Assembly (NCBI GenBank): GCA_948524275.1
Contig: CAOSLI010000004.1
Coordinates: 16,106-80,105 of the forward strand
Reading direction: 5' to 3'
Length of the DNA stretch: 64,000 nucleotides
Origin: an uncultured Clostridia bacterium
GTDB lineage: Bacteria; Bacillota; Clostridia; TANB77; CAG-508
The translations under genes were made by a program, and so were the position numbers. Under the pieces are notes generated by a model. That model saw nothing but the letters and a program-made list of their open reading frames with translations, was not told the origin of the DNA and searched no databases. This document shows positions 18,088 to 44,797 of the stretch, piece by piece (position 1 is the stretch's first letter; each line of letters opens with the position of its first letter).

Positions 18088-18501
18088 TTATTTCTTAGGT
18101 TTCTTTGCTCCGTACTTAGATCTTGCTTGCATTCTATCTTTAACACCTGCAGTATCTAATGTTCCTCTTATAATGTGGTATCTAACACCAGGAAGGTCTT
18201 TTACTCTTCCTCCTCTTATAAGAACAACACTGTGCTCTTGTAAGTTGTGTCCAATTCCAGGAATATAAGATGTTACTTCGTAACCGTTAGATAGTCTTAC
18301 TCTGGCAACTTTTCTTAAAGCTGAGTTTGGCTTCTTTGGAGTTACTGTCTTAACAACTGTACATACACCTCTTTTTTGTGGTGATCTTCTGTCAGTTTGC
18401 TTATTCTTCATAGTATTGAAACCATGTTGAAGAGCTGGTGACTTAGATTTTGTTGTTGAAGTTTTTCTTCCTTTTCTAACTAATTGATTAATTGTTGGCA
18501 C
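18088..18501 (-). CDS. rpsL: 30S ribosomal protein S12
   Basis: 137 aa with [13 protein letters not shown]...[10 protein letters not shown]. Confidence 0.97.
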
Positions 18502-18638
18502 TTAAATTTCACCTCCTATTTAAAAAAATAAAAATACTGCTATCTAGTATTTCCGTATACTAAAATAACAGTATTATTTTATCATTTTGCTACATAAAAG
18601 TCAACTATTTTTTGCTAATTTTTTATTATTTTAAGTTG

Positions 18639-18667
18639 TTGCAATTTTATGTAAAGTATGGTATAAT
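18639..18667 (+). promoter_or_regulatory. Sigma-A type promoter with extended -10, island b
   Basis: TTGCAA (18639-18644), 17-nt spacer ending in TGg, TATAAT (18662-18667). The -10 region is homologous to the promoter at 44207-44235. Confidence 0.6.
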
Positions 18668-18752
18668 AGATATAACTTTTGGATTACCCAAGAGATTCAT
18701 TTTATGAAACTCGGAGGGTAACGCCTCCGAGTAATTACAAGGAGGAACAATT
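18668..18752 (+). promoter_or_regulatory. Conserved structured 5' leader, copy 1 (candidate cis-regulatory RNA)
   Basis: Hairpin TTCAT-TTT-ATGAA (18696-18708). Hairpin CTCGGAGG-GTAACG-CCTCCGAG (18710-18731). TTACCC (18684-18689) is complementary to GGGTAA in and next to the second hairpin loop. SD GGAGG at 18741-18745. 64 of 73 positions are identical to the reverse complement of 44122-44194. Confidence 0.6.
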
Positions 18753-19190
18753 ATGGATGAGTATGGAGTACAGAATTTTGAGGAACAGCAGTACGCACAG
18801 TATTCGGAGGAAATGTCAAGAGCACAGCAAGTGCGGGCAAAGGTTTTGGCGGCAAATCCAAAAATCACTATCGACAAATTAGCGCCGCAGATCTTCGATT
18901 GGGTCTTGGATCTCATAGATTCCGATGACCCCGAAAAAAAGAAACTCTTTGGTAAAGGGCAAGTACAGATATGGTACTATACCAATAGCAAAACCTTTTC
19001 TAAGATTTCTTGCCACGTAGAGGATTTCTCCTTAGCTTATAACAACTTTACTGCTGCCCAAATGAAAACTCTTTTCGAAGCAGTAAAAGAGCTCTTTGAC
19101 GATGAGGAAGGTTACACTACAAACATAAGCAGCGAACCTGTACGAATCATGTCTAGAGATGCCATAACGCTCGATATCTCCATCGAATAA
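18753..19190 (+). CDS. Hypothetical protein, 145 aa (GC-richer island b)
   Basis: Strong SD, an uninterrupted ORF, and its own promoter and terminator. No family recognised. In-frame CGG (Arg) at 18834-18836. Confidence 0.6.
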   Translation: MDEYGVQNFEEQQYAQYSEEMSRAQQVRAKVLAANPKITIDKLAPQIFDWVLDLIDSDDPEKKKLFGKGQVQIWYYTNSKTFSKISCHVEDFSLAYNNFTAAQMKTLFEAVKELFDDEEGYTTNISSEPVRIMSRDAITLDISIE

Positions 19191-19196
19191 TTGCAA

Positions 19197-19238
19197 AAAG
19201 GCTCCCCGCTTTTCGAAGCTGGGAGCCTTTCTTTTTAT
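19197..19238 (+). terminator. Rho-independent terminator of island b gene
   Basis: AAAGGCTCCC ... GGGAGCCTTT hairpin followed by CTTTTTATT. Confidence 0.75.
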
Positions 19239-19302
19239 TATACAAAACATTATTGTATACTTTTTCTATATAACACTTTGGTATTATTCTTATTTATTTA
19301 AA

Positions 19303-43785: not shown

Positions 43786-43811
43786 ATATAAAAAGAAGCC
43801 TCTTTCGAGGC
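43786..43811 (-). terminator. Terminator of island d2 gene
   Basis: The minus strand reads GCCTC-GAAA-GAGGC followed by TTCTTTTTATAT. Confidence 0.6.
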
Positions 43812-43839: not shown

Positions 43840-44121
43840 TTACAGTAAGTTAACTGCGGACATTATGATGCATCCACATGAACATGTTATGCATATTATA
43901 GAGCATATCCAAGTTTCCTCTCTTGAAATGAGTTCTATAATCAACTTAATTGAAAATGCTATTCCCGCTATAATAGCCAATCTCATTATCAATAAGTCAT
44001 GATTGATTGCTGTCATTGCTCCTACACCTATCAATGCAAAGCAGCACAATGTTGCCAAGATTCCTATGATAGTCAAAAGGACATCAATGATGTCCCGTAT
44101 GATGTTTTTGTTTTTGCTCAT
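43840..44121 (-). CDS. Small hydrophobic membrane protein, 93 aa (GC-richer island d2)
   Basis: About three predicted TM stretches (LLTIIGILATLCCFALIGVGAMTAI, AIIAGIAFSIKLIIELI, ICSIICITCSCGCIIMSAV). SD AGGAGGA at 44128-44134. In-frame CGG is present. Confidence 0.6.
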   Translation of the reverse strand: MSKNKNIIRDIIDVLLTIIGILATLCCFALIGVGAMTAINHDLLIMRLAIIAGIAFSIKLIIELISREETWICSIICITCSCGCIIMSAVNLL

Positions 44122-44206
44122 AATGCATCCTCCTCGTAATTACTCGGAGGTGTTACCCTCCGAGTTTCATAAAATGATTCCCTTTGGGTAAATAAAGGTT
44201 ACTATT
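44122..44206 (-). promoter_or_regulatory. Conserved structured 5' leader, copy 2
   Basis: Its reverse complement aligns with 18684-18755. It has the same TTCAT/ATGAA hairpin, the same CTCGGAGG/CCTCCGAG hairpin (44143-44164), and the same TTACCC...GGGTAA complementarity. Confidence 0.6.
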
Positions 44207-44235
44207 ATTGTACCATATTTCTGCCGAAATATCAA
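44207..44235 (-). promoter_or_regulatory. Sigma-A type promoter with extended -10, island d2
   Basis: The minus strand reads TTGATA (44235-44230), 17-nt spacer, TGgTACAAT (-10 at 44212-44207). Confidence 0.55.
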
Positions 44236-44350: not shown

Positions 44351-44665
44351 TTAGGCCGTTTTAGCCACAGCGGTTATGATTTCATCGTCGGTAGCAATAC
44401 CGGGATTCCATCCCATCAATTTCATTGCGGCTGCAAGCCTGTCCTCGAAGAAAACCCAGTGGCTTTTTCCATGTTCAAACAGGCATGTTGTGCCTGCAAG
44501 CATCTCTGCTTTGAAGAAACGATAGCCGATGCATCCGTTTTTATCGTAAAACTGGTGTTTTGTAGGATCAGGCTCGTCCGTTTCCTCGATTACTGTCCAG
44601 TGATGATCATACCGTGGACAAATGTGCATAGTTTCAACAAAGAGTTTTACATTCTTTTCCTGCAT
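44351..44665 (-). CDS. Hypothetical protein, 104 aa (GC-richer island d1)
   Basis: The ATG at 44665 is preceded by AGGAGGA (44671-44677), so I prefer it to the track start at 44728. No family recognised. In-frame CGG (CCA CGG TAT). Confidence 0.55.
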   Translation of the reverse strand: MQEKNVKLFVETMHICPRYDHHWTVIEETDEPDPTKHQFYDKNGCIGYRFFKAEMLAGTTCLFEHGKSHWVFFEDRLAAAMKLMGWNPGIATDDEIITAVAKTA

Positions 44666-44765
44666 AGTAGTCCTCCTAATCTTGAACTTGCCATCAAAAT
44701 TCCAATGACAATTGTCCAAGTGATACATTTATTTAATTCGCTGTATCTACGAATAATATATTAAT

Positions 44766-44797
44766 ATTATAACAAACTTTACATAAAATGTAAAGTT
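44766..44797 (-). promoter_or_regulatory. Sigma-A type promoter of island d1 overlapped by a 10-bp-arm palindrome
   Basis: The minus strand reads TTTACA (44794-44789), 17-nt spacer, TATAAT (44771-44766). The palindrome AACTTTACAT-AAA-ATGTAAAGTT spans 44775-44797. Confidence 0.5.

Follow-up and report, generated by a model that had tools for sequence, protein, structure and literature searches.

We analyzed a 64-kb stretch of DNA (the window) from contig CAOSLI010000004.1 of an uncultured Clostridia bacterium, in which the same leader of about 80 nucleotides (nt) stands ahead of two unrelated orphan genes. Coordinates are those of the window, and contigs with L numbers (L004, L011, and L014 to L025) are external sequences, related or unrelated to it. 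The first gene (18753 to 19190, plus strand) encodes a soluble protein of 145 amino acids (aa) and lies between the divergently oriented rpsL and a gene for an APH-family kinase. The second (43840 to 44121, minus strand), driven by copy 2 of the leader, encodes a hydrophobic, Cys-rich protein of 93 aa and lies between a gene for a 104-aa protein and a GNAT gene, with an Orn/DAP decarboxylase gene among the neighbors. The G+C content is 30% for the window, 42% for the 145-aa gene, and 35% for the 93-aa gene. Neither protein was assigned to a Pfam, NCBIfam, or PHROG family. Each gene sits in a self-contained cassette of promoter, leader, open reading frame (ORF), and terminator.

Both cassettes begin with a predicted sigma-70-type promoter that has an extended -10 box. 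The promoter of copy 1 (18639 to 18667, plus strand) has the -35 hexamer TTGCAA, a 17-nt spacer containing TTTTATGTAAA, and the extended -10 box TGgTATAAT, which gave 10 of 12 matches plus the TG in a consensus scan. It recurs in L022, L023, and L024, and the 104-aa gene has a similar one. The predicted promoter of copy 2 (44207 to 44235, minus strand) has TTGATA and TACAAT separated by 17 nt, again with a TG. Cassette 1 ends in an intrinsic terminator at 19200 to 19237 (plus strand; GGCTCCC...GGGAGCC and then a T run), the 3' half of which is identical in L023 and L024. The terminator of cassette 2 lies at 43788 to 43811 (minus strand) and consists of GCCTCGAAAGAGGC followed by a T run. We place the leader of copy 1 at 18674 to 18752 (plus strand), with a probable start near 18674 judged from the -10 box, and that of copy 2 at 44122 to 44200 (minus strand). 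A covariance model matched them at 18674 to 18755 (113 bits) and at 44119 to 44200 (101 bits), respectively. Both leaders carry a strong Shine-Dalgarno (SD) sequence 7 to 8 nt ahead of the ATG.

A first-pass annotation of this DNA had proposed that 18639 to 18752 is homologous to the reverse complement of 44122 to 44215, and we found the repeat where it had been placed. An inverted-repeat search of the window returned 18654 to 18755 (plus strand) and 44119 to 44220 (minus strand) as inverted arms of 102 nt that are 80% complementary. The 41-mer CATTTTATGAAACTCGGAGGGTAACRCCTCCGAGTAATTAC, in which the loop purine alone was allowed to differ, occurs exactly twice, at 18698 to 18738 (plus strand) and 44136 to 44176 (minus strand), with none expected from 100 shuffles; the 41-nt core of the two copies is identical save for that one loop base. 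In a MAFFT alignment, similarity begins near the -10 boxes and collapses directly past both ATGs, as had been described, and the proteins encoded downstream are indeed unrelated. Only 1 mismatch falls in leader positions 24 to 65, against 13 in the remaining 40 positions (Fisher p = 2.6e-4). A recount from TTACCC to ATG gave 65 of 73 identical positions with one gap, in place of the 64 of 73 counted earlier. The antisense ORFs also reveal the repeat as had been observed, both containing the peptide ...NYSE(A/V)LPSEFHKM. The description of the promoter as conserved held only in part: promoters are predicted in both copies, but the region upstream of the -10 box is not really common to the two.

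We refer to the two window leaders as V1 (copy 1) and V2 (copy 2) and to those found in external sequences as V3 to V6. A word-based protein search with the 145-aa protein gave one homologue only. A phmmer scan of 1.8 billion representatives with the same protein returned a small family of proteins of about 120 aa (the X family), and the contigs of these homologues yielded V3, V4, and V5. In relatives of the host, they represent the same locus between rpsL and the APH-family gene and retain the promoter, the leader, and the terminator, although the ORFs are 41 to 45% identical at the aa level. V3 is from L023; V4 is from L024 and L025 and shares the haplotype of its first hairpin, P1, with window copy 2; V5, which has diverged, is from L022. 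The covariance model found V6, after both of the folds described below had been defined, upstream of a second X paralogue in L023 at the locus between the guanylate kinase and EF-Ts genes. In total, we found six variants at three chromosomal hot spots ahead of at least two unrelated protein families. Five were found within a single host lineage, and another genome has a copy of V1. When the window is compared with L023, identity is 95.8% for promoter plus leader, 84% for the neighboring host intergenic DNA, and 62% for the ORF. Six variants, mostly ahead of X genes, suggest that the leader belongs primarily to the X family and that the 93-aa gene probably took up a V4-like copy.

The leader is absent from Rfam and from the sequence collections that we searched. 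Rfam gave no matches at the gathering threshold in the whole window, and at an E value of 10 or less for 18500 to 18900, nothing overlapped the core at 18696 to 18745, with four weak matches beside it. For L022 to L024, matches at an E value of 1 or less were chance matches only. The earlier statement that the leader belongs to no recognizable riboswitch class agrees with this lack of a match in Rfam 15. BLAST found no match to the leader in PLSDB plasmids or GenBank phages, and two exact patterns had no matches in 185,579 GTDB species genomes. Pattern scans of IMG/VR gave no true match and one chance match inside a gene, and the scan of Joint Genome Institute (JGI) metagenome contigs gave four chance matches only, inside a high-G+C gene. 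A covariance model built from the two copies, as had been recommended, was run over the window with filters off and returned both copies only; a 16.9-bit match at 1019 to 1105 is an unrelated intergenic hairpin.

We then examined the folds that the leader can adopt. The minimum-free-energy (MFE) structure that RNAfold gave for both window copies consists of the hairpins P1, P2, and P3 and leaves the SD open (z = -3.8 and -3.5); we call the combination of P1 and P3 fold A. P1 (CUUUUGG-AUUAC-CCAAGAG; 18676 to 18694, plus strand; -6.1 to -7.2 kcal/mol) sequesters the CC of UUACCC (18684 to 18689, plus strand). Its energy is -6.1 kcal/mol in copy 1 and -3.3 kcal/mol in copy 2, in agreement with the earlier remark that the region 5' of TTACCC can pair in both copies. 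P2 is the palindrome UUCAU-UUU-AUGAA (18696 to 18708, plus strand), and P3 (18709 to 18732, plus strand; loop GUAACG; -16.5 kcal/mol) carries a decoy GGAGG in its 5' arm and is broken in V5. Both of these elements had been recognized before, but P3 is really 9 bp long instead of 8, and P2 alone is worth about 0 kcal/mol. The anti-SD CCUCC (18724 to 18728, plus strand) can pair either with the decoy GGAGG in P3 or with the real SD of the 145-aa gene (AAGGAGG; 18739 to 18745, plus strand), forming helix P4. The corresponding elements of V2 lie on the minus strand at 44186 to 44191 (UUACCC), 44142 to 44165 (P3), 44146 to 44150 (anti-SD), and 44129 to 44133 (SD GGAGG).

The pairing of CCUCC with the SD had been raised earlier as an alternative, and we found that it belongs to a coherent second fold, fold B. 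In fold B, UUACCC is the 5' strand of a helix, alpha, with its partner GGGUAA at 18716 to 18721, and folding predicts that CCUCC pairs with the SD once the 5' arm of P3 is occupied. On a longer construct, fold B is the MFE structure of V4: UUUACCC pairs with GGGUAAA (alpha), GGG with CUC (beta), and CCUCC with GGAGG (P4), and P2 forms the tip of the long hairpin as its apical stem. With alpha forced, fold B lies within 0.2 to 4.5 kcal/mol of the MFE in V1 to V4, in which the MFE fold itself has z scores of -3.3 to -5.0. We also penalized every MFE pair and refolded, using 300 dinucleotide shuffles as the control. The disjoint second fold of V1 to V4 always consisted of alpha, beta, and P4 (z = -3.6 to -4.3), and none of the 300 shuffles had one as stable. 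In these four variants, the stability of the MFE fold likewise far exceeded that of the shuffles (0 of 300). The two folds differ in the predicted state of the SD, which is unpaired with a probability of 0.4 to 0.8 in fold A and 0.00 in fold B across V1 to V4 (0.81 and 0.00 in copy 1).

Substitutions among the variants bear on both folds. MAFFT failed to place a 1-nt register shift of UUACCC between the haplotypes, and we therefore tabulated the alpha-helix pairs by script. In V1 to V4, the P3 stems and GGGUAA are invariant, and the two loop bases after GGGUAA vary (CG, CA, UA, and AA; GA occurs outside these four). A simple hairpin does not explain a variable loop next to an invariant GGGUAA, whereas fold B, or the stop codon described below, would. 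A seventh pair of alpha, between the base before UUACCC and the base after GGGUAA, is A-U in V3, U-A in V4, and U-G in V6, where alpha reaches 9 bp. Pair 4-20 of P1 is U-A in V1 and V3 and C-G in V2 and V4. In V6, P3 pairs 40-55, 39-56, and 41-54 change from G-C to A-U, from C-G to U-G, and from G-C to G-U, respectively; beta pair 19-39 changes from G-C to A-U, and P4 pairs 54-69 and 55-68 become U-G. Compared with V2, V6 has eight substitutions in positions 8 to 73, five of them at paired positions, and no pair is broken in either fold. In simulations of random placement, such preservation had p = 0.0096, or 0.0049 conditional on the number of substitutions in paired positions. The first-pass annotation had held that a lack of further homologues and of covariation would reduce the repeat to a duplicated DNA segment. 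That refuting outcome did not arise, which supports the earlier interpretation: we found four more variants, of which V6, the most diverged one that is still structured, changes eight positions with all pairs kept. The shuffle controls for covariation, given below, were not significant.

The leader also contains a short upstream ORF (uORF) of five codons, ATG AAA CTC GGA GGG TAA (MKLGG*), which we read from the sequence at 18704 to 18721 on the plus strand and at 44170 to 44153 in copy 2 (44153 to 44170, minus strand). Its extent is exactly that of the descending strand in the fold B hairpin; it overlaps the 5' arm of P3 and stops 2 nt before the anti-SD. The five codons are kept in V1 to V4 and V6 as MKLGG, MRLGG, or MKLRG (K2R and G4R). 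In V5, the start is shifted by one codon in frame, and the uORF has 16 codons, with its TGA overlapping the main ATG (ATGA). The sequence 8 to 10 nt upstream of the uORF is rich in purines and resembles an SD (AAGAGA, AAAGGG, or AAAGGA), though only a weak one in V1. Judged by its placement, the uORF would fit a switch operated by a ribosome; alternatively, the sequences of P2 and alpha could have produced it as a by-product.

We tentatively favor, at somewhat less than even confidence, a reading in which the leader is a narrowly distributed, cis-acting translational control element that can adopt either of two competing folds and moves together with orphan-gene cassettes. According to this model, the shared sequence would be the 5' untranslated leader of promoter-leader-ORF-terminator cassettes and would act in cis, as RNA, on translation. 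It would comprise five segments: segment 0, CUUUUGG; segment 1, UUACCC; segment 2, AUGAAACUCGGAGGGUAA; segment 3, CCUCCGAG; and segment 4, the SD GGAGG. In fold A, segment 0 would pair with segment 1 (P1) and segment 2 with segment 3 (P3); the anti-SD would be held on the decoy GGAGG, and the free SD would leave the gene ON. In fold B, segments 1 and 2 would form the long hairpin (alpha, beta, and P2) and segments 3 and 4 would form P4, masking the SD and turning the gene OFF. Occupancy of segment 0 or segment 2 would set the outcome. The likeliest candidate for the trigger would be a ribosome on the uORF, whose five codons make up segment 2 exactly, and a trans-acting factor on P1 would be an alternative. 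The analysis shows the homology, two stable folds without a common pair, masking of the SD in computed fold B of V1 to V4, and substitutions in V6 that are compatible with pairing; where transcription starts, that the leader switches in vivo, in which direction it regulates, and what triggers it are inferred. Thermodynamics and a handful of pairing-compatible substitutions make up the evidence, which is suggestive, not conclusive.

Several results weigh against a switch. V5 shows neither fold (z = -0.7 and +0.6), with three consecutive mismatches in P3, no anti-SD, and no alpha helix, and it nevertheless precedes an intact gene, which argues that the structure is dispensable. The predicted balance of folds A and B runs from 99:0 in V1 to 0.3:79 in V6, unlike that of a tuned switch, and fold B of V6 leaves the SD open (unpaired probability, 0.64). 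Covariation was not significant in shuffle controls (85 of 500 for fold A and 287 of 500 for fold B, with six sequences from one lineage). RNAalifold, run on an alignment predating V6, recovered P3 only, without compensatory pairs. The high identity of V1 to V4 could partly reflect recent common descent or recombination.

These results fit a simpler possibility, which we consider rather unlikely: that the shared sequence is a constitutive expression plug, made of a promoter, the 5' stabilizing hairpin P3, and a strong SD, and kept as a homology arm for ORF swapping or as recent duplicates. The second fold would then be an accident of having GGAGG, CCUCC, and GGAGG within 35 nt. Cassettes at the rpsL locus have ORFs that differ as strongly as noted above between near-identical flanks, as expected from allele exchange mediated by the flanks, and the behavior of V5, the inconsistent equilibrium among variants, and the covariation controls all point the same way. 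There is also a precedent. The attI1 leader of class 1 integrons, with the order SD1, anti-SD, and SD2, was proposed to be an aminoglycoside riboswitch (PMC7588185), but experiments refuted the proposal (PMC9410878). This calls for caution with the window leader. Like the attI1 leader, ours is conserved ahead of interchangeable, unrelated cassettes, and in both a decoy SD is followed first by an anti-SD and then by the real SD. In contrast to integron cassettes, each cassette here has its own promoter and terminator, and the neighbors are rpsL and the APH-family kinase, GNAT, and Orn/DAP decarboxylase genes; no integrase, attI, or attC was seen beside either copy, although no search aimed at attC was made. 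Several findings speak against a passive plug: the V6 substitutions preserve all pairs of both folds (p of about 0.01), GGGUAA is invariant beside variable loop bases, and alpha lengthens through complementary changes in V3, V4, and V6. In addition, the disjoint second fold is more stable than that of 300 of 300 shuffles in four variants, and the leader is more conserved than the adjacent host intergenic DNA.

A more specific version of the proposed trigger, which we regard as unlikely, makes the uORF itself the sensor. A ribosome held at the uORF stop would cover CCUCC and free the main SD, as in cat- and erm-type attenuators, and the genes would respond to translation stress or ribosome-targeting drugs. 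Consistently with this, all six variants share a uORF in one and the same frame, with the purine-rich stretch upstream, and it coincides exactly with the switching strand. V5, which has lost the folds, has the extended uORF that overlaps the main ATG, a coupling arrangement, and cassette 1 lies between rpsL and the APH-family kinase gene. Sensors of this type are known (PMC5499644, PMC12121999). In ermC, a leader ORF acts through 1:2 and 3:4 versus 2:3 helices, with the SD of the gene under control as the final segment (PMC5499644, PMC5418344), a logic that our leader resembles. The attenuators of ermC, cat-86, and cmlA share with our leader a short leader ORF that overlaps one strand of mutually exclusive helices. 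They differ from it in several ways: the sequences are unrelated, the choice is biased here by an additional 5' segment (P1), and the uORF lies on segment 2 instead of segment 1, is only five codons long, and encodes a peptide that is not conserved. The K2R and G4R changes follow from covariation of the stem. An AUG and a UAA imposed by P2 and alpha would share a frame by chance one time in three, and the uORF SD, weak in V1, is paired in both folds. The predicted ground state also runs opposite to that of erm and cat, with the SD open (ON) in V1 to V3 and masked only in V4, and ON in three of the five structured variants. Finally, the downstream genes are orphans without a recognizable resistance function. 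The uORF toiL, upstream of topAI-yjhQ, is a sensor of translation stress (PMC12121999); it resembles our case in that a small accessory gene is preceded by a structured leader with a short uORF, but toiL is longer and acts partly via Rho-dependent termination.

The boldest version of these ideas, which we think quite improbable as a whole, would join them into one system: orphan cassettes exchanged independently of an integrase at hot spots (rpsL-APH, guanylate kinase-EF-Ts, and 104-aa gene-GNAT), each on the same promoter and a two-state uORF riboregulator that couples expression to the state of the translation machinery, with the X protein as the ancestral cargo. Phage morons are autonomous promoter-gene-terminator units. 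Our cassettes resemble them in being autonomous promoter-ORF-terminator units of foreign base composition that lie between unrelated genes and are present or absent among close relatives. They differ in that the neighbors are housekeeping genes and there is no prophage, and we found no relatives in IMG/VR or among the GenBank phages.

Regulation could also act on the DNA, but we find this still more doubtful. The palindromes TTCATTTTATGAA, ACTCGGAGG-N6-CCTCCGAGT, and GTAATTAC would bind a dimeric repressor that blocks transcription, perhaps together with the spacer element TTTTATGTAAA. Three perfect palindromes do lie within a 45-bp invariant core, P2 and GUAAUUAC are worth about 0 kcal/mol as RNA, and TCATTTTAT is invariant in all six variants, including V5. 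A related core, CATTTTATG, occurs in the promoter spacer of the 104-aa gene, where it is invariant in seven sequences, but it is not enriched in the window (4 found versus 2.2 expected). V6 alters the arms of the long palindrome asymmetrically (CTTAGAGG and CCTTTGAG), so that RNA pairing is kept via G-U while the dyad symmetry of the DNA is lost. In addition, P2 already serves as the apical stem of fold B, and no regulator gene is linked to either cassette in its window neighborhood.

The first-pass annotation had read the complementarity of TTACCC and GGGTAA as a possible pseudoknot. The complementarity is real, but it is better explained as a helix belonging to another fold, in which P3 cannot form; this helix covers all loop bases in V3, V4, and V6. 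A small-molecule riboswitch built on an H-type pseudoknot, in which the GUAA of the P3 loop pairs with the upstream UUAC and P3 stays intact, is very improbable in our judgment. UUAC and GUAA are complementary in five variants. Some pseudoknot riboswitches are as small as this leader of about 80 nt. The helix of V3, V4, and V6 extends over loop positions 49-50 and into C51/52 and would leave a linker of 0 to 1 nt, which is probably sterically incompatible with an intact P3; this coverage of every loop base favors mutually exclusive folds. Judged from linker lengths, a version with only the 4-bp UUAC:GUAA helix would be sterically possible. There was no Rfam match even at an E value of 10, the unrelated orphan genes downstream argue against a common metabolite, and the distribution is restricted to one lineage. 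A riboswitch would be expected to have a covarying aptamer across many lineages and a coherent gene set; we found six variants, unrelated orphans, and covariation controls that were not significant. Overall, the leader does not appear to be a member of the erm/cat, integron, moron, or Rfam families.

An RNA thermometer is the least probable reading and was rejected: P4 is a helix that could mask the SD, but the predicted fractions of folds A and B and the predicted accessibility of the SD hardly change between 25 and 45°C, and V1 to V3 are predicted to have an open SD throughout. We also rejected a terminator or attenuator formed by P1 and a U tract, which was flagged in copy 1 only and has a weak stem (-3 to -7 kcal/mol); with no U tract behind either P3 or the long hairpin, transcription termination is unlikely.

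If the two-fold model holds, the leader would be a compact translational switch of about 80 nt that is not in Rfam and is absent from all six sequence collections searched, and horizontally exchanged orphan genes would arrive under ready-made control. If the model fails, the leader would repeat the lesson of attI1 that a leader can be conserved ahead of unrelated cassettes without being a sensor. The finding also points to hypervariable small genes, with a fold without known neighbor, beside rpsL in an uncultured AT-rich lineage.

The proteins of the X family share the motif MSRAQEVRAK...FDWILDLIDSDD...EEGY. Homology to the 145-aa protein starts at Met21, where its relatives begin; the window allele has a 60-nt (20-codon) insertion right behind the ATG that gives it an N-terminal extension. 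A model based on a multiple sequence alignment of the family is a small alpha/beta protein (pLDDT, 79) with no neighbor in the PDB or BFVD, and a single-sequence AF2 model of the 145-aa protein was uninformative (pLDDT, 39). The X-family profile had no match in IMG/VR. At the rpsL-APH locus, the X gene is hypervariable, with 41 to 45% aa identity between strains whose flanks are 84 to 96% identical (L022, L023, and L024). The 93-aa gene looks dispensable or counter-selected: in a sister strain of the window (L014, 1525 to 1806; JGI 3300006213), it has a premature stop (TCA to TAA) at codon 57 behind a leader identical to that of the window.

Both cassettes are missing from a relative with an identical S12, GCA_037193845.1. 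In this assembly, rpsL and the APH-family gene are adjacent in L011 without cassette 1, and a 105-aa gene and the GNAT gene are adjacent in L015 without the 93-aa cassette; cassette 2 is likewise missing in two further lineages. The empty site in L011 (2334 to 2500, compared with window 18502 to 19302) keeps TTTCAATTTTAAGT, which resembles the cassette -35 box and spacer TTGCAATTTTATGT. This suggests that the cassette may have been lost by deletion between ATTTTA microhomologies and that the site may not be an ancestral empty one. The relatives L011, L015, and L016 come from assemblies GCA_037193845.1 (contig JBANSG010430630) and GCA_037194105.1 (contig JBANSF010395852), each of several hundred thousand contigs, which suggests that the host bacterium may be a passenger in a eukaryote or community assembly.

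A contig of 43% G+C, L004 (537 to 1120; JGI 3300006217), carries the promoter, leader, and first 129 codons of cassette 1, 97% identical to window 18634 to 19136. The site lies between genes for a histidine phosphatase and a sugar-binding protein; other sequence has taken the place of the 3' end of the ORF, and the terminator is missing. The copy in an unrelated genome of higher G+C content is evidence for horizontal transfer and for a possible donor lineage.

Comparison of the window (20983 to 21351, plus strand) with L023 (2320 to 2787) identified the intergenic region between the guanylate kinase and EF-Ts genes as the third of the cassette hot spots. At this site, the window carries an unrelated gene of 122 aa; its leader is a different one, but the final 20 nt, ACAAGGAGGAAAAAACAATG, match those of V4 exactly.

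The 104-aa gene, with its true start (MQEKNV) at 44665, has a different leader of about 105 nt (44666 to 44794, minus strand), which is also found in L015 (3866 to 4000), L016 (1520 to 1655), L017, and L019 to L021. In at least five lineages, this leader is far more conserved than the ORF, for which aa identity is about 65%. Rfam had no match to it, and RNAalifold predicted two helices, in which one pair is compensatory and several changes affect one side only. The spacer element TTTTATGTAAA (18639 to 18667, plus strand; 44766 to 44794, minus strand; alignment columns 28 to 38) is invariant in seven of seven promoters of the 104-aa gene. It is also present in the X-cassette promoters of V1, V3, V4, and V5, and that of V6 is similar. 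The extended promoter motif, the -35 hexamer plus TTTTATGTAAA with up to 2 mismatches, has 5 sites versus 1.4 expected. The element may be an operator or may merely reflect common ancestry. The 104-aa gene is always divergent from the Orn/DAP decarboxylase gene.

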